A DNA stretch of 64,000 bases, taken from positions 1,401 through 65,400 of IMG/VR virus record IMGVR_UViG_3300031992_000090; one strand, 5' to 3'. Of this stretch, positions 4,236-48,839 are shown in pieces (position 1 is the first letter of the stretch; the number at the start of each line of letters is the position of its first letter). This DNA comes from a virus. Taxonomy: Duplodnaviria > Caudoviricetes. A program made the position numbers and the translations under genes. Under the pieces are notes generated by a model. It saw only the letters and a program-made list of their open reading frames with translations, did no database searches and had not been told where the DNA came from.

Positions 4236-7200
4236 ATGCCATCGTCTAATTATGATGTCCCAAAGCCGGTCGGCTCTTTACCTAAACCAATAGACTACAG
4301 TTCCTCCAGCGGCGGTCGTTCATCTGCCGCTGCCGTCAACGATCCAATGCGACTTGCGCAGGAGATGGCACGTAATCAGAGACGTGCGCAGGCGCAGGCT
4401 AACAGGAAACCTACCAAGAAAGAGCAGGAAGAAGCTTTAAAGAACGCCAAAGAACAGCTGCTGACAAGTGCTGAACTGGAAGCACAGCAGTTAATTGACA
4501 ACGATCCAACTTACAGGAACGGAACCTATCAGCGTAAGAACGAGCTGTTAGACCATTACGAGAAGAATATCCTCCCGCAGATTTTGGCAGCTAATCCTTT
4601 ATTACGTGATGACGCTGTTCTGCGTGCCAATGTCCAGAGCAGAATTAAATATGTCTTTGACAATGCCCGTAAGGATAACGAGACTGCGTCCAATTTCAGT
4701 ATGGCTCAGGAGGCGTGGGCTTTAGGACAGTCACTTGGTCGTGGTGGTGACATTGCTTATGACAGCGCATCTACACTTGCGCAGGCTTTAAGAAACGCAT
4801 CACGTACGGCGGCTGATGATGAGCGTGCTCGTGTTATAAAACAGATTGAGGATAATTACAATACTCAGCTTGATGAACTGAATACCAGACAGCAGATGTT
4901 CAATGGTGATCCGGATACACAGAACGCTATTGAACAGCAGAAACAGCAGTTAATCAGAAACCGTAACGACAGTATGCGTCGTCTGGAGGAGAACACAGCC
5001 AGACTGCGTGCTGACGATGCCAAGCAGATTGCACTTGAGACTCAGGAACTTCTGAAAGAATATGCGAAAACTGCAGAGAATGAGCAGGCTCGTCGTGCAA
5101 GTAACGAGGCCTATAGAGAAACACAGTTAAGACAGGACGAGATTCAAGATAAGTCCTGGGGTCTTTCCAGGAACAATCGTAAAGTAGCAACCATAGCCTC
5201 ATGGCTTTTGGAACAGGTACCTCAGTTAGCTGTTACGATTGGTCTGACAGCAGCAGGTTCAGCAGTAGGTGGCGGTGCGGGAGCTGCTACCATGCTGGGT
5301 CTTACCAGTGCTGTTCAGGGTATGGGTGATGCTGGTATGCAGATATTCAGCGATATCATCAATACTCCAACTGAACAGCTTAAAAACTCTGAGGACTATC
5401 AGGAGATTTACCGCAATCTAGAGGGAAAGTATAAAGATCCTGTAGAGCGTGAACAGCTGGCAAAAGCCTATCTTGCCTACAATGCTATGAGCGAGGCTTT
5501 ACCTACAGCCGGTGCTGTATCAGGTGCGCTGTCATTCTTAGGACCAGAAGCTTTAGTTACAAAAACAGGTGTGTTCAATCGTCTGTTAGACAGTAAATTG
5601 CTGAACGCTACCAATTACAAAGGTTTCAATCTTCCTGGTATAGATAGACTCGTCCAGGTATCTCCTACTGCTGCCGTACGTACTAATGCTGCCGCTAACG
5701 CTATAGCGCAGCGCGCTCCACGAGCTGGTGCTATGGCGATACTTGGCGGTGCCGGTGAAGTTCCTGAGGAAGTAGCGCAGCAGGTTCTAGGCAATGTAAC
5801 CTACAGTGATGCTACCGGTATTCAGCGTGATCCATTTGAGGGTGCAGGACAGGCAGCCCTGCAGGCCTTTGCTACAGGCGGTCTTGTCGGTGGTATCGGT
5901 GGATTGTTAACCAGTCCTAGTGTAGCTCCGGAAACCGCAGGCACCACAGGAGCAGGACAGACTGGTGCTCAGACACAGCCAGCTCTGCCACAGCAGGCAC
6001 AAGCTGATACAACATTTACAGGAGAGTATCAGCCAGGTTATCGCTCGACAGATCTTGGTACACCACCTAGACAGGGACAGACTATAAATGTTCCACCTGA
6101 TATGCAGCAGCCGTTACTTTCTGACCAGCCTAGACTTACGGCACCACAGAATACAGCTGTACAGAATACAAACGTACAGACCGGCACAAATGCGCTGACT
6201 ATGCAGGGCAGACTCCCCGCTCCTCCGCAGCAGCTGCCTAATATGCCAGCTCCATTGAACGCCGCTGAACAGGCACAGGCTAACCAGATTCAGACCATGC
6301 TCACTGAGCCTGTCATTACACCTCCGCTTACTGATGCGCAGTCTCAGGCTATTCAGGCTGTACGCAATATGCTGACTGAGTCTGCTCCTACATCAGTAGA
6401 AGGCAGCATCGCTAACATGATGGCGTCAGGACAGCTTAACCCTGCGGCCATAAACACAGCCAGCGGACCTACTGAACAAGCCGTCGCTAACATGATGGCT
6501 CGTGCTCCTACGCCTGTAGAGGGCAGCATCGTTAATATGCTGGCATCGGAACAGCCTAACCCTGCTGCAGTTGCGAACACAAACAACGGACTGACCGAAC
6601 AGGACATCGCTAACATGATGGCTCCTGCTCCTACTGTAGAGGGCAGTATCCGTAATATGATGGGTACAAATCAGGTAAACCCTGCTGCAGCTGTCCTAGA
6701 TCCTAACAGCGGTCTGACTGCACAAGACATCGCCAACATGATGGCTCCTGCTCAGACGAGTACCGTAGCCAATACCTTACAGGAGACACCAAATGCTAAC
6801 CTCAGAACAAATCAGGGAATTGATCTTACAAATAGCCAGGCAACAGCCAATAGACCAGGAAACAGCCCTGCAATTGGATCCGAAAACTTTACGCCTGCTG
6901 CTGGAAGTAGTGCAGCAGCTCAGAGCGCAGGGACTGGCAGGACCTCACGTCAGGACGCCAGAACGCCTGCTGTGGATGTATCATCTAATCAAACAGAGAC
7001 TGGCGGGACAGGAAGCAGAGCCGGACGCCGACCAGATAATCCAGTCGCTGATACCACAGGCACGTCAGCAGATCTTGGGCAACGAGGCGGTGTTAGCCCG
7101 TCAGTCCAACGCACAGGCGATGGTGAACGCACAGAAGCAGATGGCAGCACTCAACCGGCCAGGTCTAATGTAACCAGTGACAGAACCGACCTGGGTGAGT

Positions 7201-10200
7201 CCGTTATGGACTTCTCCCCGGTTGATACATCGGAGGTTGACAACTTAGTTGCCGTTGCTGACACGTTAAAGCTTAACGCTGTGAACGTGGTATCTCCTGC
7301 CTACAGTCAGAGACTGCAGGATTTACAGAGGAATTTTACCGAGCAGGTAAACAGCGTGATTAAACAGTCAGGACAGAAACTAAGTCCTGACGATATAGCA
7401 GAGGCGGCCAATGCCTATGCGCAGTTAGTTATCCGTCTTGAGAACACGCTTGCTTACGTGACACAGGCCTCAATTGAGAACGGTGTTTTAAGTGACGTCC
7501 AGATACAGTTCAGTAATGACCTTGTTAACCGTGCCTATGGCAGATTCAATCCTGTTACCAAAGATTTACAGGTTTATTTCTACGAGAAAGACAAGCGCAA
7601 ACTTGCAGAGGTTATCAGTTCTACGACCTTTGCCCATGAGTACATGCACAACACAGTTGACTATGTACTAACTCATGTGAACTCTATACGCAGGCTGGCT
7701 GACAGCGGTAATGAGGCGGCCAGACAGTTCCTGCAGGATTTCAGCGACTTTGCGCACTACTGCGGTATTCCTGAGAATGTGGATCCATTCTGCGAGGCTA
7801 ACTGGTACAAGCAGGACAATGACAAGTTCCCGCATGAGAATGCCGCAATGCTGTTCGCTGATTACATAGTCGGCAACAAGCCGCTGCCTAGAGACACAGG
7901 ACTGAACCATCTCTACAGAGGTGCTACGAATTTTGCACGGCGTCTGCGTGACGGCTACCGTATGGTTATTAACTATATCAAACAGGTTATTGATTCGCTC
8001 AAAGCAATGTTTGAGTCCGGTAATGACCAGTTTGATTCTACCCATCAGAGCTTCGTAGCTAAGACCAAAGTAGATATAGCAGCCCATAATTTTCCGAACC
8101 AGGATCAGGTCTTTAACTTCTTTGACAAGCTCCTGAGTGATTTCTATGCTGACCTTGCGCATGAGCCTGTAGGTCCTGCGATTGAGCCTGACGACAATAT
8201 CGCAACTTTCGTAGGCGCACAGATAGACAGTTACAATATGGCAGGACAGTATGCAAGTGACGGCATGGACTTGCCTAATTCTATGCGCATGGCTGATGCT
8301 TATGTGGCTGAGTGTGTACGTGTGGCAAGTCTTACTGATGCAGAAAAGACATATGAAGCTGTACAGCGTCAGCAGGATCTAATAGCCAGCGCCATTGCTG
8401 AGGATCCAGGTCTATTGGTAAATTCAGCCGATGGTCAGACTGACCTTGAATCAGTTACGGTGGCCATGACCTCTGACACAGCTCCATATGACGCAGTCCA
8501 CGGGATTGTAGATCCTGTGATCCACGGTCTGTCCACTGTGAACGATCCGTCTATTGATGTAATGTCGCTTCCTGATAACAGCTACGAGATAGAGCCTATC
8601 TTCTCAGAAGAACAGGAACAGCAGATAAAATCAGAACTGACTGTGGCTATCAATGACGAGCTTGCCAATGGTCTGACAGGAGATTCAACTCCTGTTACCG
8701 AGCGTGAGTGGTTCAGTGCGTTTATCAACAACGGCGGTATCGTTGATGAGAACGGTTACCCACAGCCGCTCTACAGAGTAAACCACCAGCTTTCTACAAC
8801 ACCTAGCGGGAAAGAGCTTGAGACTGTAACCTACGGGCGTATGGAGAATCCTGTACGTGCAGGCGATAAGCTTGAGAATGTGGCGGCTTCGGAACGTGCA
8901 GCCGTACGAGACTTGATAAACCGTGTACAGACTGCGGTAAAGCAGAACAGACTTGATACCTTCGAGCCTACTGATAAAGACTTAGAGGCTCTGTTCAATG
9001 CGCAGATTGACGCCATCATTGCCCGTAATGCGGCAGGAGACGAGGTTTACTATATCCCAAGTCTGTTAAATGCCGCTGACTACGCCGAGATGGATCTCTA
9101 TGACTTTGGTCCTAATGTGGTCCGTCTGTCTGCCAGCCGTTACAATGCAATACTGCGCAGCCGTCCGCAGGCTAATCAGGCTGAACCTCAGACTGAGAGC
9201 GAACTGCAGGAGCAGCTGTCCCAGATTCTGCATCAGTTCCATCTTAAACAGGAGAGCCAGTTAAAAGACGGGCGTTATGCGCAGGCGGTACGAGTAGCTA
9301 ATGGCAGTAAGACTTTAGCTCAGGCTGAGGCTTACCGTACTGCAACTGTAGGACCGTACAGAGCCAACGGCTGGATGCGAGGCGCAACCCGTGTGCGTTA
9401 TGAGATAGTTGACGAGAACGCCTATTTCAGATTGTGGGTAATAGAATATTTTGCTACTACAGAAGGAGCGCTTGACAGCCATCCGCTTTACAGGACATAC
9501 GTCATTACACCGTCTCAGATCCGCGGCGCCAAGCAGGAACTGTACATGCGCTTTCAGCAGCCTATGAACCGCTGGATGCGTGAGAGAGCCAAAGAGTTCG
9601 GTATCAATGCTGATGTGTTTGCACATGACATAGGACAATTCTACACAGATCTGCATACCATTGAAGCCAATGTGCAGATGGAGAAAGAACTCAACGAAGC
9701 ACTGGCTAAAGCTCAGCTGGTTGAAGACCAGACTGAAAGAGCACAGGCGGTTAAGAACGCTCAGGATACTCTCAATAAATTCTACGAGCGCCAGAAAGAT
9801 AATACAAAGCGTTTTGGTATCCCAGGCGGCAAGTCAGTCGCTCAGTGCCGTACAGAGATGCAGGAGCTTGCCGCCAAGTATGGTGATGAGATTCTGCAGG
9901 ACGGCGTGGCTATGTTCCAGAAAACCATCAAAGATCTGGTAACTCTGCTGATTGAACGCGGCGTACTGTCTGAGGAATACGTAGCCTCGTTCGGTGACTG
10001 GTCGTTCTACTGTCCGTTAATCACCAAGGCAGGCTACAATGAGTCAGCTCCTAATGACGCTGCGGTTATGTTCCCGTCTAAACTTGACTATGCTCGAGAG
10101 GGATCTGAGCACCCTGCCGTTGACGCCTATACAGCCTTATCTTTCATCATCCATAAGAGCGGTAATGCTTTAGGATCTACAGCACTTGGACGTGAGGTTG

Positions 10201-12542
10201 TGGCAAGCTATGAGATCCTGCGCAACCGCTACTCACAGGGAGCTTATAACGCAAGCAATGAGCGCCAGTACAATCAGACCATCAACGGTGTTACAAACAG
10301 ACGTGAACGGTTAGGCAATCTGGAAATTAACTATTACAATGGTCTGGCAGTCGTACCTACTGCTGACCTGATGCAGTACTATGAGACGGCTATAAAAGAT
10401 CCTAAGGCACGCAGACGGGAGATAAACCGTAAACGTGACCTGGTTGTACGTGTGCTCCGTCCTGAACAGAAGAGGATTGCTCCTGAGGCGTACGTAGATG
10501 AGGGACAGATGAACAGATCTGTTTCTTATTCGGTTATCTTCGATGACAGCACTCCTGAGATGCAGCGTGTAAAAGAAGCTTTCAGGAGACCGTTCTTTAT
10601 AGATACAGACGCAAAAGAGAAATGGGGCGCAGAAGCTATATATGCCGTGCGCCGTGTAACCTCAGAATATGCGCAGCTGAATACAACCTGGAAACCACTC
10701 TTCCCTGTGTTCAACAGCGAGCGTGACTTCATAGAAAAGCTGAACTATGTGTTTACACGCAATTACCGTGACGACCAGGGCGCACGTGTGAACGGTGCCG
10801 TAGTGGCCAAACGCTACGCTGCCAATCTGCGCTACACACCTCAGATTGTACAGGCTGCCATAACCAATCAGCCTGAGACAATTGAGGGTAAGGTTGGTGA
10901 GTACCTGGTTGAGTTCCAGCGTCAGGGCATTATGCAGGTCAGCAGTCTGCAGACAGCTCTGGAGAAATCAGGACGTGTAACCTCAGCTTTTGTCGAGGGC
11001 AAACTCCAGAAGTTAGTTCCGGATCGTACTAAGCGTGAGCAGATAATAAGAGCACTAAGAACCGGAAAATACCCATTCAGTAAATGGGCTGAGATACTGT
11101 ACTCTATTCCTACATTCTGCGTGTACAAGGCTTTCCGTGACAGCGGACTGAACCCTAACGCTGCGCATTTCCATACCATTGAGCTGATGAATCTGGAGAT
11201 GAAAGGTCATCTTACCGGCAAGCTGATGCCGTTATTCCCGTTCATTCCGTCTATCACACAGACAGCTACTAATCTGGTAAGTTCCTATGGTTTTGACGTA
11301 GGCTCTTTTGGTTCTGTCAAAGAGGCTGACAAATACAGCAGAACTATCAGAGCATGGGGTATGCATTTTGGTATAACAGCATTAGCAAGCGCACTCATTC
11401 CAATCGTTGCTGTTATGTTAGGAGACGGTGACCAGGATAAAGGCTACAAAATCATGGATCAATGGTCTATCCAGTCGATAAACTTCTTCCCGATTCCGTT
11501 GGGCAGTCAGGATTACTACAAACAGCAGTTAGGTTTTGGTCCTGCCGTATTCAGTAATCAGGCAGCGTTTATAGTGAACCGTGTACTGCGTGGACAAATG
11601 ACCCTGGGTGAAGCAGCGTCTGCTTTAATCGGCAGTTTCATTCATAACGTTTCACCAGTTGCAGGACCGCAATGGGATATTGATTCCTGGGAAACTTTCT
11701 TCCAGAAAGTAATAGCAACGGCACTCCCAAGTGTGGTCGCACCAGTGGGCTATTTGTTTGGCTTTAACAAGAACTATTTCGGCAATACCATAAACCACCC
11801 TGAGTATATGTCTTATGGACAGCGTAAGTCTGATGTGGACGTACTGACAACTGAACAGACATTCAAAGATCTGGCTAAGTCTATATATGACGCAACTGGA
11901 GGAAAATTTGACCTGACCCCTGAGTCTATCAAAGAGTTTATGAAGTCCTATGCTACCGGAGTCTTTGCAGGTATATTTAACTATGTCACGGAAGATCCAC
12001 TAGCTAAGGATCCAGCCTACAAATCTACGGCTGAGATACTTGGTCCTATGTGGACATCTTTCGGTCTCACAATGGGATACGGTACAGTCGGTAACGTTGA
12101 CCGTCAGCTATACTATAAGTATCAGGAGTTCTACGAGGAACAGATTGAACGAGCAGGACTTGGTGACGCTATCAAAGTGACAAAAACAGGCGCAGCCAAT
12201 GCCACTGAGAGCCGCAGGAAAGTTTTGACTGAGGCTGGGTTCAACCAAATGTTTGTTGATGATGTTGCAAACTTAACGGATCTGAAAAAGGAACTTGAGA
12301 ACGTAACTAAAAAAGCCAAGAAAGATTTGGATAATGCATGGGCTAAGGGAGAGCCAGAAGCAGAGTTTGCTAGAATTATGAACGTTATGCGTTCCACGCA
12401 GAACATACTCATAAGCAATAAGATGAAAGAAATAAACCTCTATAAAGGGAAAATCACCAGAGTTGCTATGATGGAAAGTGTAGACGAGACTATAGCTTCT
12501 GGTAAACCACAGCTCATCAGAAACGAGGCAGGAGGCAGATAA
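4236..12542 (+). CDS. Giant internal virion / large polyvalent protein (2768 aa)
   Basis: Uninterrupted ORF with coiled coil, hydrophobic Gly/Ala segments, low-complexity linker and HEYMH (HExxH) at 7635-7649. C-terminus resembles LPD38-type domains (from recall). Confidence 0.7.
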   Translation: MPSSNYDVPKPVGSLPKPIDYSSSSGGRSSAAAVNDPMRLAQEMARNQRRAQAQANRKPTKKEQEEALKNAKEQLLTSAELEAQQLIDNDPTYRNGTYQRKNELLDHYEKNILPQILAANPLLRDDAVLRANVQSRIKYVFDNARKDNETASNFSMAQEAWALGQSLGRGGDIAYDSASTLAQALRNASRTAADDERARVIKQIEDNYNTQLDELNTRQQMFNGDPDTQNAIEQQKQQLIRNRNDSMRRLEENTARLRADDAKQIALETQELLKEYAKTAENEQARRASNEAYRETQLRQDEIQDKSWGLSRNNRKVATIASWLLEQVPQLAVTIGLTAAGSAVGGGAGAATMLGLTSAVQGMGDAGMQIFSDIINTPTEQLKNSEDYQEIYRNLEGKYKDPVEREQLAKAYLAYNAMSEALPTAGAVSGALSFLGPEALVTKTGVFNRLLDSKLLNATNYKGFNLPGIDRLVQVSPTAAVRTNAAANAIAQRAPRAGAMAILGGAGEVPEEVAQQVLGNVTYSDATGIQRDPFEGAGQAALQAFATGGLVGGIGGLLTSPSVAPETAGTTGAGQTGAQTQPALPQQAQADTTFTGEYQPGYRSTDLGTPPRQGQTINVPPDMQQPLLSDQPRLTAPQNTAVQNTNVQTGTNALTMQGRLPAPPQQLPNMPAPLNAAEQAQANQIQTMLTEPVITPPLTDAQSQAIQAVRNMLTESAPTSVEGSIANMMASGQLNPAAINTASGPTEQAVANMMARAPTPVEGSIVNMLASEQPNPAAVANTNNGLTEQDIANMMAPAPTVEGSIRNMMGTNQVNPAAAVLDPNSGLTAQDIANMMAPAQTSTVANTLQETPNANLRTNQGIDLTNSQATANRPGNSPAIGSENFTPAAGSSAAAQSAGTGRTSRQDARTPAVDVSSNQTETGGTGSRAGRRPDNPVADTTGTSADLGQRGGVSPSVQRTGDGERTEADGSTQPARSNVTSDRTDLGESVMDFSPVDTSEVDNLVAVADTLKLNAVNVVSPAYSQRLQDLQRNFTEQVNSVIKQSGQKLSPDDIAEAANAYAQLVIRLENTLAYVTQASIENGVLSDVQIQFSNDLVNRAYGRFNPVTKDLQVYFYEKDKRKLAEVISSTTFAHEYMHNTVDYVLTHVNSIRRLADSGNEAARQFLQDFSDFAHYCGIPENVDPFCEANWYKQDNDKFPHENAAMLFADYIVGNKPLPRDTGLNHLYRGATNFARRLRDGYRMVINYIKQVIDSLKAMFESGNDQFDSTHQSFVAKTKVDIAAHNFPNQDQVFNFFDKLLSDFYADLAHEPVGPAIEPDDNIATFVGAQIDSYNMAGQYASDGMDLPNSMRMADAYVAECVRVASLTDAEKTYEAVQRQQDLIASAIAEDPGLLVNSADGQTDLESVTVAMTSDTAPYDAVHGIVDPVIHGLSTVNDPSIDVMSLPDNSYEIEPIFSEEQEQQIKSELTVAINDELANGLTGDSTPVTEREWFSAFINNGGIVDENGYPQPLYRVNHQLSTTPSGKELETVTYGRMENPVRAGDKLENVAASERAAVRDLINRVQTAVKQNRLDTFEPTDKDLEALFNAQIDAIIARNAAGDEVYYIPSLLNAADYAEMDLYDFGPNVVRLSASRYNAILRSRPQANQAEPQTESELQEQLSQILHQFHLKQESQLKDGRYAQAVRVANGSKTLAQAEAYRTATVGPYRANGWMRGATRVRYEIVDENAYFRLWVIEYFATTEGALDSHPLYRTYVITPSQIRGAKQELYMRFQQPMNRWMRERAKEFGINADVFAHDIGQFYTDLHTIEANVQMEKELNEALAKAQLVEDQTERAQAVKNAQDTLNKFYERQKDNTKRFGIPGGKSVAQCRTEMQELAAKYGDEILQDGVAMFQKTIKDLVTLLIERGVLSEEYVASFGDWSFYCPLITKAGYNESAPNDAAVMFPSKLDYAREGSEHPAVDAYTALSFIIHKSGNALGSTALGREVVASYEILRNRYSQGAYNASNERQYNQTINGVTNRRERLGNLEINYYNGLAVVPTADLMQYYETAIKDPKARRREINRKRDLVVRVLRPEQKRIAPEAYVDEGQMNRSVSYSVIFDDSTPEMQRVKEAFRRPFFIDTDAKEKWGAEAIYAVRRVTSEYAQLNTTWKPLFPVFNSERDFIEKLNYVFTRNYRDDQGARVNGAVVAKRYAANLRYTPQIVQAAITNQPETIEGKVGEYLVEFQRQGIMQVSSLQTALEKSGRVTSAFVEGKLQKLVPDRTKREQIIRALRTGKYPFSKWAEILYSIPTFCVYKAFRDSGLNPNAAHFHTIELMNLEMKGHLTGKLMPLFPFIPSITQTATNLVSSYGFDVGSFGSVKEADKYSRTIRAWGMHFGITALASALIPIVAVMLGDGDQDKGYKIMDQWSIQSINFFPIPLGSQDYYKQQLGFGPAVFSNQAAFIVNRVLRGQMTLGEAASALIGSFIHNVSPVAGPQWDIDSWETFFQKVIATALPSVVAPVGYLFGFNKNYFGNTINHPEYMSYGQRKSDVDVLTTEQTFKDLAKSIYDATGGKFDLTPESIKEFMKSYATGVFAGIFNYVTEDPLAKDPAYKSTAEILGPMWTSFGLTMGYGTVGNVDRQLYYKYQEFYEEQIERAGLGDAIKVTKTGAANATESRRKVLTEAGFNQMFVDDVANLTDLKKELENVTKKAKKDLDNAWAKGEPEAEFARIMNVMRSTQNILISNKMKEINLYKGKITRVAMMESVDETIASGKPQLIRNEAGGR
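6380..6750 (+). repeat. Three imperfect ~40-aa repeats (EGSIxNMMA...NPAA...TxQDIANMMAPA) in the giant protein
   Basis: Recurring CATCGCTAACATGATGGC-like DNA motif, six IANMM-like copies. Confidence 0.85.
6793..7173 (+). CDS. Candidate nested +1-frame gene inside the giant protein gene
   Basis: AGGAG (6781-6785) upstream of ATG 6793. The 126-aa product is L/Q/A/E/I-rich and helical-looking, while the host frame there is disordered. Confidence 0.5.
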   Translation: MLTSEQIRELILQIARQQPIDQETALQLDPKTLRLLLEVVQQLRAQGLAGPHVRTPERLLWMYHLIKQRLAGQEAEPDADQIIQSLIPQARQQILGNEAVLARQSNAQAMVNAQKQMAALNRPGLM

Positions 12543-40569: not shown

Positions 40570-40922
40570 TTTTAATTTATAAGTGATTGATAGTAAAGGA
40601 AATGTTTGCACGGCTTGCATATATATGTATAGACCTGTCACGCCGTTGGCTGTACGTCTAAGATGCCGCCGCATCTTGAATGGCTGACACGTTTGGTTTG
40701 TATACGTATAGATACTGCACGCATCTTGTATGTTAGACGGTGAGGCGATGCCAGGGGGGCGGGGGCGGTTTGGACAGCGGCGCGGCGACACCCCCCACCA
40801 CACACATTAGGTCTGCAAAAATTTTTTATAAATTTTTCAAAATCTTAACACAATCTACATTGCTCGTTTTCAAAGTCTGCTACACTTGCGACGCCCTCGG
40901 TGTCCTATTTGCACTCTTGGTC

Positions 40923-41104
40923 TGCGGCGTCTCCGATGTCCTATCTTTTATTATGAGTGCGGCGTCTCCGATGTCCTATCTTTTATTATGAGTGCGGCGT
41001 CTCCGATGTCCTATCTTTTATTATGAGTGCGGCGTCTCCGATGTCCTATCTTTTATTATGAGTGCGGCGTCTCCGATTTCCTATCTTTTATTATGAGTGC
41101 GGCG
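40923..41104. repeat. 35-bp tandem repeat, 5 full copies plus a partial
   Basis: TGCGGCGTCTCCGATGTCCTATCTTTTATTATGAG at 40923, 40958, 40993, 41028 and 41063 (one G>T), then TGCGGCG. Confidence 0.95.
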
Positions 41105-41151
41105 CCCTCGGTGACGTTACTGACGTTACGTTTATTCTGTCCTCAGTGTCC

Positions 41152-41180
41152 TTGACATCACCATTAAAATTAAGTACAGT
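41152..41180 (+). promoter_or_regulatory. Sigma70 promoter for the hairpin RNA
   Basis: TTGACA (41152-41157)-17 bp-TACAGT (41175-41180). Confidence 0.7.
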
Positions 41181-43883: not shown

Positions 43884-44381
43884 ATGGCAACAATAGATTA
43901 TGCTTCTCTGCTTTTGAAAGATAAAGACGGCAACGTAGGCAGAGTCAGGACTTTAAGCCAGACAGACATTGCAAAACTCAACAATGCGGTAGCTGTTACC
44001 ACCAAGAGCGGTCTGCCGGTCTACAGTTCCACTATTGACTATGAGGTAGGCTTTGTAGTGCGTTCGGGCACTTACATCTACCAGGCTCTGGTTGCAAACG
44101 GTCCTAATGAGCCAGCTGGCGTACAGCCTGTAACCAACCGCACTTACTGGGCGCAGATAGGCTCAGTTGCAGATGCTACCACCACAACCAAAGGTGTGGT
44201 ACAGCTGGCTGACAGTGCCGCAATTACCGCAGGCACCGCAGGACGTGTGATTGACGCAGCCCAGCTCAAGGCTGTAGCGGATACGATAGAGAACATAACC
44301 GTATCCAGTGTCGCAGTCGATCCGTCTGCTCTCAATGCCCGCGAGGGTGTGATAATGCCTGCCACTGACTTACTGGATTAG
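43884..44381 (+). CDS. Tail fibre protein 3 with CBM5/12-like module
   Basis: YSSTIDYEVGFVVRSGTYIYQAL...P.TNRTYW; ATTTTKGVVQLA repeat. Confidence 0.7.
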   Translation: MATIDYASLLLKDKDGNVGRVRTLSQTDIAKLNNAVAVTTKSGLPVYSSTIDYEVGFVVRSGTYIYQALVANGPNEPAGVQPVTNRTYWAQIGSVADATTTTKGVVQLADSAAITAGTAGRVIDAAQLKAVADTIENITVSSVAVDPSALNAREGVIMPATDLLD

Positions 44382-44392
44382 GAGGATGCAAA

Positions 44393-45166
44393 ATGGCTGA
44401 CGTAACACATGGCAAGTTTGTCTTTAAGGACAGCAGCAACAACGCTGGTACAGTTCTCGGTTTATCTGCAAATGACATCAGCAAGATGAACGCCAAGGCT
44501 ACTCTGGACGTGGTAAGTTCCGCAAGTGCTTCAATAAGTAACAAGCATGGTGAGCTGTTCCCGGCCACTGACCGTCTGACTGCTCCTGACACTCACTATC
44601 CGGTTGTCATTCAGGCACACTTTGTCACCGGCGATATCAAGCAGACCATGAACCCGAATTTTGACGCCACCGAGTGGGTGCTTGGCAATGGCGCATTAGT
44701 CCCAAGAACAGGAGCTTACAAAGATCTGTGGGAGTTTGCCAACGACCTCGGCCTTGTCAGAGACGCCTCTGCCCAGGCAAGCTATGAGAGTAACCCTTCC
44801 ACCTTTGAGGGTCTGTCCTACGGTCCTGGTGACGGCTCCACCACTTTCCAGCTCCCCGATTTCAGAGGGCGTGTAATACAGGGCGCAGATGCGTCCCATG
44901 CACTTGGTCATTTCATTAAAGCTGGGTTACCTAACATAACTGGACAAACAGGAAGTTGGGTAAGGTACAGAAGCATAACTACAAGCGGCGCCATATACAA
45001 AAGTGCTGACCAAACACAACAAGGTCAGGGCTTGGCTGATCCAAGTTCAGGCTTTATCGTTTATAGTGGACTCGTGTTAGATGCATCTGGTTCAAATAGC
45101 ACCTACGGAAATAGCAATACCGTTCAACCTTTAGCCGTATCGAGCTACAACTTAATCAAACTGTAG
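44393..45166 (+). CDS. Collar-domain tail fibre A with invertible C-terminus (cassette A expressed)
   Basis: GNG..V.R..Y.DL...YGPGDGSTTFQLPDFRGRV collar motif; PNITG crossover at codon 180. Confidence 0.9.
   Translation: MADVTHGKFVFKDSSNNAGTVLGLSANDISKMNAKATLDVVSSASASISNKHGELFPATDRLTAPDTHYPVVIQAHFVTGDIKQTMNPNFDATEWVLGNGALVPRTGAYKDLWEFANDLGLVRDASAQASYESNPSTFEGLSYGPGDGSTTFQLPDFRGRVIQGADASHALGHFIKAGLPNITGQTGSWVRYRSITTSGAIYKSADQTQQGQGLADPSSGFIVYSGLVLDASGSNSTYGNSNTVQPLAVSSYNLIKL
44930..44944 (+). repeat. Shufflon 1 crossover site A (expression site)
   Basis: CCTAACATAACTGGA. Confidence 0.9.
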
Positions 45167-45378
45167 GTAGATACTGCTTCTTGCTGAACAGTTGAAACGC
45201 TGTCGCTGTAAATGGCATTACTGCTTGAGGCTTTAAATTCGAGATACACATAGTATCCCTCAAGCGACCCGTCCGGTAATGGAGCATTGCTAGTAAACGA
45301 GGTGGTAGCAAAACAGCCCGTGTGCCGATAACCGTTTGCGCGTGCTGCTACATCGGCTTGTGTTCCAGTTATGTTAGG
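45145..45378 (-). other. Silent C-terminal cassette B (77 aa)
   Basis: PNITGTQADV...VSTYSLIKL*, starting at the inverted site 45364-45378. Confidence 0.9.
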
Positions 45379-45391
45379 GAAAAATTTAAGC

Positions 45392-45616
45392 CCTAACATA
45401 ACTGGAGATATACACGATATGTATGGTGGTGACAGAACTGTTAGCGTCGCATTTAGCCGTTCGACTATACACGCTAGTACTATGAAAGCAGAAGCTGGAA
45501 ATAACATGGGTAGTACAACTGTTTATTTCGGGGCCTCGTATGCTAACTCGATTTATGGAGCTTCTACAACCGTACAATCACCAGCTATAAGTTCTTACAG
45601 TTTAATTAAACTGTAG
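45392..45616 (+). other. Silent C-terminal cassette C (74 aa)
   Basis: PNITGDIHDM...ISSYSLIKL*, site 45392-45406. Confidence 0.9.
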
Positions 45617-45819
45617 GTAGATACGGCTAAAGATTGTACAGTGTTGCTTGTGCCGTAAACTGCACTCGAACGAGACGCATTAAAGGTTATTCCCCAATAC
45701 CATTGTTCACTTCCAGCAACGTTAGGTGCAAGTCCTGTAAGACTTGTGTTAATAGCAAGAGCTCCACTCGCAGTCTTTAAAGGCGATGTTAATGTTGTAA
45801 AATCTCCAGTTATGTTAGG
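45595..45819 (-). other. Silent C-terminal cassette D (74 aa, not in ORF track)
   Basis: Hand translation PNITGDFTTLTSPLKTASGALAINTSLTGLAPNVAGSEQWYWGITFNASRSSAVYGTSNTVQSLAVSTYSLIKL*; site 45805-45819. Confidence 0.9.
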
Positions 45820-45892
45820 CCCCTTTCCCTACCCAATCTCTCTAAACATAAATCCAGCTATCCGTTCTCGCGCCCAAAGTGTGTTAATTTCC

Positions 45893-45987
45893 CTGTGCCT
45901 GGCACAATAGCAGAAAACGGCAGATACAGTCACAAATGGCTAAGTGGTGCGGTTTCCAACCTAAATCCTGAGCACAGCGGGCACATT
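45893..45987. promoter_or_regulatory. Arm-like GCACA site set, copy 1
   Basis: CTGTGCCTGGCACAATA plus direct GCACA pair at 45972 and 45981. Confidence 0.7.
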
Positions 45988-45997
45988 AAAAATCCTA

Positions 45998-46026
45998 TTG
46001 GCAATCTTGTAAACTGCACATATAAT
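45998..46026 (+). promoter_or_regulatory. Sigma70 promoter for fibre B
   Basis: TTGGCA-17 bp-TATAAT. Confidence 0.7.
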
Positions 46027-46063
46027 ATGAATATACGCATGTGTACGATTAATGGAGAATATT

Positions 46064-46669
46064 ATGGCCACAGTAAGTCCGTCCAATTTTAAATTTGTAA
46101 ATGCATCTGGTGATGACGGTGAGGTAAAGTCCCTGTCAGATGCTGACATTACTCTTATCAACAACTGTTTGCAGGACGTTGAGAATTTAAAATATACCGC
46201 TTTAAGCTCGCTGCCGTCTGGAAGTATGATCCATTTTGCAGGTAACGTTGTCCCTGCCGGGTTCCTCGTCTGCAACGGTGCAGCCGTAAGTCGTACTGAC
46301 TATGCAAATCTGTTCGCTGCCATTGGTACTCTCTATGGAGCCGGTGACGGTTCTACCACCTTTAATCTGCCTGATGCCCGTGACAGAGTCCTCCAGGGAG
46401 CTTCTTCAACATACGCAGTCGGAACCCGCATTGCGGCTGGGTTACCGAATATCACGGGAAAAGTCTATTGGAGTAATGCTGGGAATCCCGCGGCTAGCGG
46501 GGAAGGTGCACTATATTGGTCGATGAACGATGCTGCGGGTACTCGTGTCACTGATGAAGGTTATCCAGCAAACATTAGTATCGACGCCTCTCGATCAAGC
46601 TCATATTACGGCGTTACTACGAAACCTCAAATAGACGGTATATCGGTTTACACCTTAATCAAAATATAA
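46064..46669 (+). CDS. Collar-domain tail fibre B with invertible C-terminus (cassette E expressed)
   Basis: GGAG RBS; LPSGSMIHFAG..VPAGFLVCNGAAVSRTDYANLFAAIG...GDGSTTFNLPD collar motif; CCGAATAT at 46445-46452. Confidence 0.9.
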   Translation: MATVSPSNFKFVNASGDDGEVKSLSDADITLINNCLQDVENLKYTALSSLPSGSMIHFAGNVVPAGFLVCNGAAVSRTDYANLFAAIGTLYGAGDGSTTFNLPDARDRVLQGASSTYAVGTRIAAGLPNITGKVYWSNAGNPAASGEGALYWSMNDAAGTRVTDEGYPANISIDASRSSSYYGVTTKPQIDGISVYTLIKI

Positions 46670-46872
46670 GACGCTACAGCAGGCGCTTGTACTGTAGTTA
46701 CTGAATCACTATAAATCGCATTGCCAAGCGACAGGTTGAAGTATGGATCTATATTTTTTGATTGCGCTACGGTTTCGACATTTTCTCTTGAAGTGCCAGG
46801 ATTCAAAAAATAAGTCGCCCCTGCGGTGGCACTTGATCTGCCTATCATAGACCATCCACCCCGAATATTCGG
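46648..46872 (-). other. Silent C-terminal cassette F (74 aa)
   Basis: PNIRGGWSM...VASYILIKV*; inverted core CCGAATAT at 46865-46872. Confidence 0.85.
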
Positions 46873-46944
46873 CACCCTTTCTCCACCCATCCCACCCGTT
46901 AGATTTTCAATTCGTTATACCATGTTTATTCTCCTGTAAAATCG

Positions 46945-47039
46945 CTGTGCCAGGCACAATACGGCTTTTCATCCATCTGACAATAAACTCTAGCCTTATC
47001 AGTTATTTGTCCTGATATCTGCGGCACATTGAGCACAGC
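46945..47039. promoter_or_regulatory. Arm-like GCACA site set, copy 2
   Basis: CTGTGCCAGGCACAATA plus direct GCACA pair at 47024 and 47033, overlapping the integrase 3' end. Confidence 0.7.
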
Positions 47040-48132
47040 CTTTTGAGCAGAGGTAATCCCACCAGTTTTGCAGAACAATTCTGCGCTGTGCCGTAAGCTG
47101 GGAGTGCATGTAGGCCTGGACGGTTTCCGAGCCGGTGACATGGGCAAGCATACTCTCTGCCACTTCAAAAGCTACGCCCTGCTCTGCCATCCATGTGCGT
47201 CCTGTAGCTCTAAGCCCATGATGGGTGGTGACACCGCTCAGGTCACTGGCTTTAAGCCATTTGGTAAGCGCCTGCACATGGACATGCTTTCCGCGTCCTA
47301 TTCGCCATATATAGGGGCTTCTGCTGTGGTTCAGGTATTTGATTTCGTCCAATAGATTTATGACAGGCTGGATCAGCGGTACCGTATGGTCACGTCTTTT
47401 TTTCATAAATCTGGCAGGAATGGTCATCACATCATCGGTGATCCATGACCACTGCATCTGGCTGACCTCATTGGGGCGCAGCATTGACCAGACACAGAAC
47501 GTGACATAGATTTGCCAGGCTCTCTCCTCCTGTGAGCACAGACTGAACAGCAGATTGAGATTCTGCGGGTTTATATAGGGGTGGTGTCTGACGCATTTAG
47601 GCGGGAGTATGCGGGAGAGCTGGGCTGCCACGTTGGCATCTACCAGTCCTGCGGCTTTGGCAAGATTGAGCATCTCATTTATGCGCATCAGACAGCGTCT
47701 GCGGGTTGCAGGTCTGTCCTTGAGATTGTCAAGGGCCTCGAGTATTTGAGGTGCGTTTAAGCTGTCCAGTTCACATTTTCCCAGTTTGGTTATGATATAC
47801 TTCTCGATGCGTTTTTTCTCATTCGGATAGGAAGTCAAGCTCTTTTTCTTGTCTCTCCAGAGATAGAACGCATCCCATAGGCGTGCTCCTTCTGATGATT
47901 TCAGTCCAAGTCTTGCTCGTATTTTGTGCGCTTGAGCTCTGGCCTGGACGATGGTCATGGGAACACGGCCTAGGGTGATGTCTCGCACTTTGCCGTGTTT
48001 ACTGTAGCGGAGCACATAAGTTTTCACGCCAGAGGGGAATACACGGACAAACAGACTTTCCCCAAGTTTAAAGGTATAGCGTTTGGTTTGAACCGGCAGA
48101 CGGTTGATGGTTTGTTGAGTTATCTTATTCAT
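46999..48132 (-). CDS. int: Tyrosine recombinase (P4-type integrase with arm-binding domain), probable shufflon invertase
   Basis: AGGAGG before ATG 48132; N-terminal LFVRVFPSGVKTYVLRY arm domain; catalytic LRPNE, K, HGLR, LAH and AY. Confidence 0.9.
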   Translation of the reverse strand: MNKITQQTINRLPVQTKRYTFKLGESLFVRVFPSGVKTYVLRYSKHGKVRDITLGRVPMTIVQARAQAHKIRARLGLKSSEGARLWDAFYLWRDKKKSLTSYPNEKKRIEKYIITKLGKCELDSLNAPQILEALDNLKDRPATRRRCLMRINEMLNLAKAAGLVDANVAAQLSRILPPKCVRHHPYINPQNLNLLFSLCSQEERAWQIYVTFCVWSMLRPNEVSQMQWSWITDDVMTIPARFMKKRRDHTVPLIQPVINLLDEIKYLNHSRSPYIWRIGRGKHVHVQALTKWLKASDLSGVTTHHGLRATGRTWMAEQGVAFEVAESMLAHVTGSETVQAYMHSQLTAQRRIVLQNWWDYLCSKGCAQCAADIRTNN

Positions 48133-48305
48133 ATCGTTAACTTTCCTCCTATTAATTTGATAGTACATTTTTCGGAAAGTTGCATTAACTTGTAGATAAT
48201 TAAGCGTTTACACGCAAGACTTGTGACGGATTGTGTGAAATTCTTTTGTTTCTGACATATAATAAGACTAGTTATGTAACTTAACACTTGAGGAGTTAAT
48301 TCCAA

Positions 48306-48839
48306 ATGGCAACACAATTGCAGACAGCATATCGCTTCGATAAGTACAGTTACTATCGTGGCGAAGATAAGGTAATGATGGACGGTGAAGGCAAAATCCT
48401 GTTACCGCCTGATGACACTTTAGTCAAGCCAGATTTAAAAGACGGCTACTGGTCTAAGTTTGATAAAGCCGGTAACAAATGGGTAAAAGAGAAAATCCCT
48501 ACCACCTGTCAGGAAGTTATTGACGCTGGTCTTTCCGTAGTATCCAACTCATCTGAGCCGCACGATCGTGAACTTATAGATCTGTTTGCTCGTCTGGTTG
48601 AGGCTGAGAAAGATGTATACCAGCTGCACACAGAGCCGGATACTCTGGTTCAGACCATCGAGAAAATCCCTGAGCCTACCCCTGAGGAGAAAGAGCGTCA
48701 GGAGCAGGAGAAGCAGAAAGCTGAACTGGACAGACAGATAGCCGATATCCGTGAACGTTTAGCAGACGCTACTCTGTTAGGTGATGAGGAATGGATCGCA
48801 GAGTTACAGGCTGCTTATAAGGAACTGATAGGAGCATAA
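48306..48839 (+). CDS. Tail fibre assembly chaperone-like protein
   Basis: AYRFD...Y.GE......ILLPPD.TLVKP..K.GYW.KF....W; follows the fibre genes. Confidence 0.65.
   Translation: MATQLQTAYRFDKYSYYRGEDKVMMDGEGKILLPPDDTLVKPDLKDGYWSKFDKAGNKWVKEKIPTTCQEVIDAGLSVVSNSSEPHDRELIDLFARLVEAEKDVYQLHTEPDTLVQTIEKIPEPTPEEKERQEQEKQKAELDRQIADIRERLADATLLGDEEWIAELQAAYKELIGA

Follow-up and report, generated by a model that had tools for sequence, protein, structure and literature searches.

A four-site DNA module accompanies arm-domain tyrosine recombinases at phage tail-fibre shufflons

How a tyrosine recombinase that shuffles phage fibre cassettes finds crossover sites that are locked into coding sequence, and how it avoids deleting the cassettes between them, is a standing question that was raised by the authors who described the Rin shufflon. 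The question arises again in a 64-kb stretch of DNA (here, the window) covering bases 1401-65400 of the IMG/VR virus record IMGVR_UViG_3300031992_000090, a 65.4-kb phage genome that was assembled from a sheep-gut metagenome and is rated complete by CheckV. In this window, two tail-fibre shufflons lie beside a single recombinase gene. A preliminary description had reported that the same palindromic 17-mer and the same pair of GCACA words stand just outside the last crossover site of each shufflon, and had proposed that an integrase and its phage attachment site (attP) were co-opted for inversion, with the arm sites duplicated to drive a second shufflon. Here, we describe these sequences as a four-site module that is conserved at the DNA level, with fixed geometry and location, beside related recombinase genes. 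From its sequence patterns, we argue that its four TGTGCY words are probably arm-type accessory sites of a shufflon-dedicated heterobivalent invertase, the module having been duplicated for the second shufflon.

Two shufflons and two module copies beside one recombinase gene

The run of fibre genes in the window terminates in two Collar-domain genes on the plus strand, followed by the convergent recombinase gene on the minus strand. Fibre gene A (44393-45166, plus strand) and fibre gene B (46052-46669, plus strand) are open reading frames (ORFs) with Pfam Collar and PHROG tail-fibre matches, and each carries its currently expressed C-terminal cassette. Behind fibre gene A, the exact 15-mer CCTAACATAACTGGA, which encodes P-N-I-T-G, occurs four times in alternating orientation: as core a at 44930-44944 (plus), core b at 45364-45378 (minus), core c at 45392-45406 (plus) and the terminal core d at 45805-45819 (minus). 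Behind fibre gene B there is a single, weaker inverted pair around CCGAATAT. Its core e, GGTTACCGAATAT, lies at 46440-46452 (plus) with P-N-I in frame, and its terminal core f, at 46865-46877 (minus), matches core e over CCGAATAT only. The silent alternative cassette of this second shufflon is an 80-amino-acid ORF (46648-46890, minus strand) beginning M-G-G-E-R-V-P-N-I-R-G, and the P-N-I codons of both shufflons' cores are in frame with silent cassettes. Short crossover repeats of alternating orientation, four at locus 1 and two at locus 2, separate alternative C-terminal cassettes, and the array is adjoined by a dedicated recombinase gene that converges on the fibre gene, both in the window and in every related locus whose flank is long enough.

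Comparison with a close relative bears on how these segments vary. A recombinase 96% identical to that of the window was found on four metagenome contigs (L003-L006; L numbers designate fetched sequences throughout). The constant parts of this relative's fibre region are 80-93% identical to the window and the cassettes between cores are unrelated, and homology breaks exactly at the cores: at 44943 in core a, at 45803 beside core d, where it resumes, at 46458 beside core e, and at 46860. Unrelated cassettes with breaks at cores are as expected of a cassette system. The core overlaps of the two window shufflons differ (CCTAACATAAC and CCGAATAT), a difference expected to keep the two from recombining with one another. 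In the 96% relative (L003:11200-14200) both shufflons have a CCGAATATTA-type core, making cross-talk possible there.

The sequences outside the two terminal cores hold to the base as they were first reported. The 17-mer is present as CTGTGCCTGGCACAATA at 45893-45909 and as CTGTGCCAGGCACAATA at 46945-46961, 74 and 73 bp outside the last cores, and these are its sole two matches with fewer than three mismatches in the window; allowing up to three mismatches raises the count to 3, with shuffles of the 64 kb giving an expectation of 0.43. GCACA occurs at 45972 and 45981 and again at 47024 and 47033, with a 9-bp period that starts exactly 79 bp past each 17-mer start, and the words GAGCACAGC and GGCACATT around the GCACA pairs come in swapped order in the two copies. 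A CCCTTTC..ACCCA flank, also noted earlier, is indeed shared by both terminal cores of the window; it is absent outside this lineage and was therefore rejected as a component of the module, and in locus 2 the silent cassette ORF begins with it.

Read on the recombinase strand, the module consists of a direct pair, TGTGCY-N3-TGTGCY, then a TGTGC-N3-GCACA palindrome 78-81 bp past the first TGTGC, and then the terminal core 53-81 bp further on. A motif scan places both copies in the window on the minus strand. Copy 1 has its direct pair, TGTGCC-N3-TGTGCT, at 45972-45985, 79 bp from its palindrome, TATTGTGCC-A-GGCACAG (45893-45909), which holds two inverted TGTGCY sites and is centred 81 bp from core d. 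This copy is non-coding, lies 1 kb from the recombinase gene and occupies the interval that separates shufflon 1 from fibre gene B. The palindrome of copy 2, TATTGTGCC-T-GGCACAG (46945-46961), is centred 80 bp from core f and begins 38 bp past the recombinase stop codon, its TGTGC lying 41 bp past. The direct pair of copy 2, TGTGCT-N3-TGTGCC at 47024-47037, is dual-coded as Cys-Ala-Gln-Cys-Ala near the recombinase C-terminus, in keeping with the overlap with the 3′ end of the gene that had been described.

Aligned without gaps, the two copies are 79% identical in the pair and 89% in the palindrome, and their spacers (62 and 66 bp) are 23% and 27% identical, no better than shuffles. Only the words and distances are preserved between them, and each copy lies on the fixed side of the terminal core of its fibre shufflon. 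The duplication proposed for the two shufflons would correspond to a second, non-coding copy that has kept words and spacing.

The recombinase gene (46999-48135, minus strand) encodes 378 amino acids with arm-binding, core-binding and catalytic domains, as judged from Pfam matches and an AlphaFold model. Pfam assigns residues 29-87 to Arm-DNA-bind_3 (PF13356, E 1.5e-11) and recognises Phage_int_M (PF22022) and Phage_integrase (PF00589), and the sole NCBIfam match, to the integrase-domain model PRK09692, scored 111 bits and so fell short of the cut-off of 434. In the model, which has a mean predicted local distance difference test score (pLDDT) of 86, an N-terminal four-strand sheet and helix (residues 20-76) precede the core-binding and catalytic domains. 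The top structural matches of the model are the full-length lambda integrase (Int) chains 1Z1B, 1Z1G and 5J0N, over 334-370 alignment columns; this likeness came from the fold search, a sequence search of the PDB with the recombinase having returned no match. The earlier recognition of an arm-domain integrase is thus supported by both domain match and fold. In an alignment of 31 homologues, N-domain residues are invariant together with R220, K245, H306, R309, H332 and Y342, of which the first five can be read as the R-K-H-R-H pentad and Y342 as the tyrosine nucleophile. The enzyme is a lambda/P4-type heterobivalent tyrosine recombinase, probably used here for inversion. Its arm-binding domain distinguishes it from arm-less, simple recombinases such as Rci and Rin, and the system, while shufflon-like in its working, has an enzyme outside the Rci and Rin recombinase families.

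This enzyme is the sole recombinase in the 65.4-kb genome, which has one Phage_integrase match and no match to the resolvase-family serine recombinases (PF00239) at E values up to 1. A lone recombinase of P4/lambda integrase type would also be compatible with the module and terminal core being, or doubling as, attP, in which case the enzyme would integrate the phage into a host site and inversion would be secondary or absent. We consider this very unlikely. The core forms part of a coding motif of the fibre and recurs in alternating orientation, and a tRNA search of the window found none. The phage encodes a terminase, a portal-like protein and a lytic-type replication set (DNA polymerase A, a DUF927 primase-helicase and an SNF2 helicase), with no lysogeny integrase recognisable in the genome apart from the shufflon-linked recombinase.

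The module among relatives of the recombinase

An alignment-based scan retrieved recombinase homologues of 35-47% identity from gut and rumen metagenomes, IMG/VR contigs, and Succinivibrio and Succinatimonas metagenome-assembled genomes. A peptide-pattern scan of viral contigs with the single recombinase protein gave no match, nor did a distant blastn search of 44300-48200 against INPHARED phages. We searched both strands of 1.2 Mb, made up of the window and the fetched loci, with a composite pattern of the direct pair, a distance of 76-84 bp and the palindrome, allowing at most 2 mismatches in 20 bases; by our estimate, about 0.02 matches would be expected by chance in 1.2 Mb of random sequence. 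Within the window, this pattern finds only the two module copies, well beyond what chance would give. Across the 1.2 Mb, every match adjoins a homologous recombinase gene, overlapping it or lying just past its 3′ end, or is the second copy of the window lineage. A slightly looser later scan added one further module, in L067, about 1 kb downstream of the recombinase gene and beside the terminal core. Within the 1.2 Mb, the composite pattern gave no match beside outgroup integrases or beside the canonical integrases that co-reside with some of these enzymes.

At no more than 2 mismatches, the module is present in 29 sequences (the window and 28 fetched loci), which represent about 20 distinct phage or prophage loci, beside recombinases that are 35-62% identical. 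The survey of homologous integrases that had been suggested as a check has therefore found the same flanking motifs well beyond the window, and at the sequence level each of these roughly 20 loci has a cluster of putative arm-type sites that differ from the core and flank it. The pair-to-palindrome distance is 78-81 bp in every module. Where flank is sufficient, the core CCnAAyATnAnnGG follows the palindrome at 53-54, 64-67 or 78-81 bp; in L067, which was scanned separately, the distance counted from coordinates is about 59 bp. The distances from palindrome centre to terminal core form three classes rather than a continuum. The core then recurs every 400-450 bp, alternately inverted and direct, in up to 12 copies, with a convergent Collar-domain fibre gene beyond.

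These recombinase genes are convergent with Collar-domain fibre genes in differing myovirus backbones, and the baseplate genes around them vary: one set of loci has Mu-like gp45-48, another Baseplate_J plus Wedge1. The slot between recombinase and shufflon accepts foreign genes, inserted before or after the module in three lineages: a gene with an NYN domain (L067:4085-4909), one with a SocA/Panacea domain (L068:2518-2991) and a 192-amino-acid ORF (L031:6211-6789).

In a quick maximum-likelihood tree, the fibre-associated enzymes form two supported clades (97 and 99 in the SH-like approximate likelihood ratio test, SH-aLRT), and module-bearing members occur in both. Several clade-bearing prophages possess a second, canonical integrase: a separate 385-amino-acid enzyme adjoins tRNA-Leu at the prophage edge in L007, L009 and L011 each have one of 376 amino acids, and a 217-kb contig of the 96% relative (L070) has one of 375 amino acids. 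In L009, L011 and L070 this second gene lies a few kb from the clade gene, and the separate integrases in general are placed by tRNA-Leu or close to an edge of the phage region. The co-resident integrases are 28-33% identical to the shufflon-linked enzymes, as compared with 44-62% among the enzymes of the window, L007 and L009, and they fall outside both fibre clades, the node that joins the two fibre clades and the co-resident group lacking resolution. By these sequence relationships, the clade appears to be dedicated to fibre shufflons rather than to supply the prophage's integrase, which speaks against an integrative role for the window's enzyme.

A second point against such a role is that relatives differ by inversions at cores. 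Two loci from one metagenome, L018 and L021, have flanks that are 99% identical and differ by two segments of about 430 bp inverted in place, with breakpoints at the cores, and inverted cassette segments also distinguish L017 from L021 and L016 from L037. The IMG/VR contig of L018 terminates in an inverted copy of its own first cassette segment (L018:7250-7514), which may represent the assembly artefact expected when both orientations coexist in a sample. Association of the clade with shufflons, separate integrases in the prophages and inversions among relatives all favour a role of the clade as invertases; contigs of the window's own lineage, considered below, show no inversion.

The 217-kb contig is the remaining observation on the side of integration, as it joins the relative's fibre module to bacterial DNA, or DNA resembling an integrative and conjugative element (ICE). 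At L070:7778-12405, the fibre module of the 96% relative is joined to a region in which a canonical integrase occurs together with type IV secretion genes and a NikA-like gene. About 6 kb separate the junction from the module, and it falls where a different assembly of the same sample breaks both contigs (the L072 end and the L003 end), near window 40850-41152, and the homology of all relatives to the window likewise begins at 41152. This may be a prophage or mosaic junction, or else a chimeric join. We rejected the contig as proof of integration via the module because the junction is remote from it and may be an assembly join.

Constraint on the DNA of the module

The two cysteines of the Y-C-A-x-C-A motif encoded by the direct pair are at least 90% conserved in the protein alignment, so the possibility that the pair is a by-product of coding needed testing. 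Taken to its limit, this idea would deny the module any function in DNA: the pair would encode a Cys-Ala-x-Cys-Ala motif, the palindrome, which follows the stop codon in the window, would be a terminator or mRNA hairpin, and copy 1 would be the decaying relic of a duplicated gene end. Several features of the relatives make this scarcely credible. The pair begins anywhere between -86 and +18 bp from the stop codon, yet lies at a fixed distance from the palindrome. In L068, L069, L067 and window copy 1 no part of the module is coding, and in L031 half of the pair is non-coding, its second word lying beyond the stop codon; in several of the fully non-coding lineages the module has zero mismatches. 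Where the protein ends C-K-V-C-E or C-S-V-C-E, the TGTGC words are missing from the coding sequence and the pair reappears past the stop in non-coding DNA. In L068 the pair stands at +2/+11 past the stop with the palindrome 80 bp on, and in L069 it stands at +18/+27. In L067, in which the NYN-domain gene has been inserted after the recombinase, the module 1 kb downstream, beside the terminal core, has zero mismatches.

Codon choice points in the same direction. Among the 15 lineages with a coding pair, the cysteine codons at the pair are TGT in 27/27 cases, as against 48/133 elsewhere in the same genes (36%; the other 85 are TGC), and the alanine codons that follow are GCY (GCC or GCT) in 29/29, as against 211/437 (48%) elsewhere; the sixth base, the Y of GCY, was outside the search pattern. 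When the second cysteine is replaced, by glycine in L011 or by serine in L034, the DNA word nGTGCY is retained. The floating stop codon, the non-coding modules, the codon skew and the replacements that keep the word together place the constraint on the DNA and not on the protein. A coding-only reading of the pair is ruled out by the codon skew and the non-coding modules. As for copy 1, its word order is swapped and its spacers are random while its spacing is exact, which is not the pattern of a decaying relic.

The palindrome was evaluated in the same way. Its centre triplet varies (CGA, AAA, TCA, TTA, TGA and others) while its half-sites stay constant, and the earlier suggestion that methylation of a central CCWGG Dcm site modulates switching is abandoned on these grounds. 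Changes in one half-site are not compensated in the other, the hairpin folds no better than shuffles (z from -0.3 to 1.0), and in many loci a true terminator hairpin lies separately between palindrome and core. These three findings rule out an RNA hairpin or terminator as the explanation of the palindrome.

Over 80 pooled sites, four from each module, positions 1-4 read G, T, G and C in 80, 79, 80 and 78 cases, position 0 is T in 72/80 and position 5 is Y in 78/80; A was preferred at -2, and G never occurred at -1. Direct and inverted sites share one consensus, (t)(a)(t)TGTGCY. The GCACA motif singled out before is therefore real, and is merely the middle of this longer site. Judged from these patterns, the module behaves like a selected cis-element with fixed geometry that travels with the recombinase clade and its terminal crossover site.

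A genuine cis-element could still be bound by some other protein, such as a host nucleoid protein or a dimeric regulator of phage or host, which would then serve as an accessory factor, or as a switch, in inversion or in the transcription of neighbouring genes. This is the main alternative to arm sites, and the palindrome is shaped like a dimer site. Serine invertases employ the host factor Fis at an enhancer, and module copy 1 abuts a promoter-like site of fibre gene B, TTGGCA-17-TATAAT (45998-46026, plus strand; consensus match only). This site agrees with the consensus at 11/12 positions and begins 13 bp beyond the copy, and occupancy of the pair there could also influence fibre B transcription. 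We nevertheless think it unlikely that another protein is the reader. A single monomer-type consensus that includes the flanks across all four sites fits monomeric arm-binding domains better than a dimer, there is no conserved consensus for integration host factor (IHF), and the module follows the recombinase clade across phage backbones and hosts. Moreover, no DNA-binding gene is conserved beside the system, the sole conserved neighbour looking like a fibre assembly protein.

That neighbour is a divergent gene of 177 amino acids (48306-48839, plus strand); in each of the seven loci compared, which encode five distinct proteins, a homologue of it flanks the recombinase. Its N-terminal 125 amino acids are kept beside the recombinase in all related loci, and some homologues have a DUF4376 C-terminus. 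From this sequence pattern, it is probably a tail-fibre assembly protein and not a DNA binder; if so, fibre, cassettes, recombinase and chaperone would form one travelling unit. Elsewhere in the window genome, a 2768-amino-acid ORF (4236-12542) has zero Pfam matches, and an AAA_5/VWA gene pair adds to the lytic-type replication genes.

A putative intasome for inversion, and its known counterparts

We infer both the identity of the protein at the four sites and the effect of its binding on recombination. The reading that we favour is that of arm-type sites for the shufflon's own recombinase. Under this model, the N-terminal arm-binding domains of recombinase protomers would bind the four high-affinity TGTGCY sites, and the C-terminal domains would then engage the weak core sites. 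The cores are probably weak, and not open to optimisation, because they are short and must encode the fibre motif P-N-I-T-G. By analogy with lambda Int, the arm sites by the fixed end may load the enzyme and bridge to the cores, such that an intasome-like complex at that end would deliver the enzyme to inverted core pairs and drive inversion in cis. The four sites would match the four protomers of a synaptic tetramer.

With two shufflons and one recombinase gene, the second, non-coding copy of the module would serve the shufflon that does not adjoin the gene. A module stands beside each shufflon; in L067 it has stayed with the core, and in the window one copy, non-coding, is 1 kb away from the gene. 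These observations point to action in cis at the recombination site and not to expression of the recombinase gene. We tentatively extend this to a lambda-like intasome rebuilt as an inversion machine, in which four arm sites, one per protomer, may form a portable module that licenses any array of weak cores, constrained by coding, that lies nearby, so that copying the module could suffice to place a second gene under the same recombinase. The placing of two of the sites within the recombinase's C-terminal codons might then keep enzyme and site together through phage mosaicism. An origin of the module from attP, as was first proposed, is plausible.

A number of observations weigh against reading the four words as the arm sites of an invertase. 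The loci were gathered by homology of their recombinases, and the search pattern was itself taken from the window. Logan contigs of the two source sheep-gut runs and of two other gut runs showed one arrangement of the window's phage and no inversion joints, although such contigs drop minority forms, and in the 96% relative no inversion separates the four contigs (L003-L006), whose shufflon sequences agree at 100%. In L031 and L033 the first core is parted from the module by a gene, and in L068 a SocA-type gene directly follows the module, the first core there not being located; the arm-to-core distance is therefore not invariable. One nested six-row subclade of the tree, together with L064, keeps the fibre cores and has no recognisable module, which these lineages have lost. 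The spacers show no consistent match among loci to the IHF-type bend site WATCAANNNNTTR. Finally, the TGTGC-N3-GCACA palindrome, with 3 bp between its half-sites, has a form that a dimeric regulator could use as well.

Comparison with known systems places the locus between integration and inversion machineries. The attP of lambda integrase carries the arm-type sites P1, P2 and P′1-P′3. The present enzyme shares the three-domain heterobivalent architecture of lambda Int, full-length lambda Int being its best structural match, and the module resembles lambda attP in its repeated non-core accessory sites, direct and inverted, some 60-170 bp from the core and by the 3′ end of the recombinase gene. 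Unlike in lambda, the sites stand on one side of the core only, and two of them are usually dual-coded in the recombinase's own C-terminus. The partner cores lie within a structural gene in alternating orientation, the expected product is inversion of a fibre cassette and not integration or excision, and neither an Xis-like gene nor a conserved IHF site was seen.

Among inversion systems, the Gin, Cin, Min and Pin enzymes of Mu, P1, p15B and e14 are serine recombinases that produce alternative fibre C-termini with the help of a cis enhancer bound by Fis. The output would be the same here, fibre C-termini switched by inversion, and a cis accessory element is likewise present, in a genome that differs from theirs in having no resolvase-family gene.

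Among tyrosine recombinases with an arm-binding domain, which include the P4/SXT-type group, the best-characterised are described in a large survey as phage or ICE integrases (Smyshlyaev et al., 2021, PMC8138268). Rin, from a shufflon in Bifidobacterium prophages, was reported to be the first tyrosine invertase from a phage (Mavrich et al., 2018, PMC6109161). It is without an arm-binding domain, its authors asking how directionality is set in the absence of arms (PMC6109161). In both systems a phage tyrosine recombinase adjoins cassettes for receptor-binding C-termini with short crossover repeats, and a separate integrase serves lysogeny. Unlike the present enzyme, Rin lacks the arm domain and has no accessory sites described, and the recombinase family, host phylum and crossover sequence differ. 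Rci derives its selectivity from asymmetric 31-bp sfx sites and has an extra C-terminal domain (Komano; review PMC11852207). The R64 Rci shufflon is likewise a multiple-inversion tyrosine-recombinase system with alternating sites and the same need to favour inversion over deletion; it differs in that Rci is a simple recombinase with that extra C-terminal domain, has no remote site cluster and acts on a plasmid pilus-adhesin target. Our literature search, which was not exhaustive, found no account of an arm-domain shufflon invertase or of its accessory sites. Fibre shufflons run by phage tyrosine recombinases are already known, with Rin published, and what appears to be new is an arm-domain clade with a candidate arm module.

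Arm-domain recombinases, regarded as a hallmark of integrating elements (PMC8138268), are here tied as a clade to fibre shufflons. The phylogenetically footprinted four-site module makes the question of how such enzymes find their crossover sites testable through four 6-bp words or one spacer. It is also a clear example of over-printing, in which the C-terminal codons of a protein carry a DNA-binding signal that the same protein probably reads. Together, the recombinase, the module and the 14-bp cores make a compact set of candidate parts with which to engineer multi-state DNA shuffling or to tune the host range of phages. If the proposal of an intasome serving as an inversion machine is true, it would offer a mechanistic answer to shufflon targeting and inversion bias, and with it a new orthogonal multi-inversion tool.

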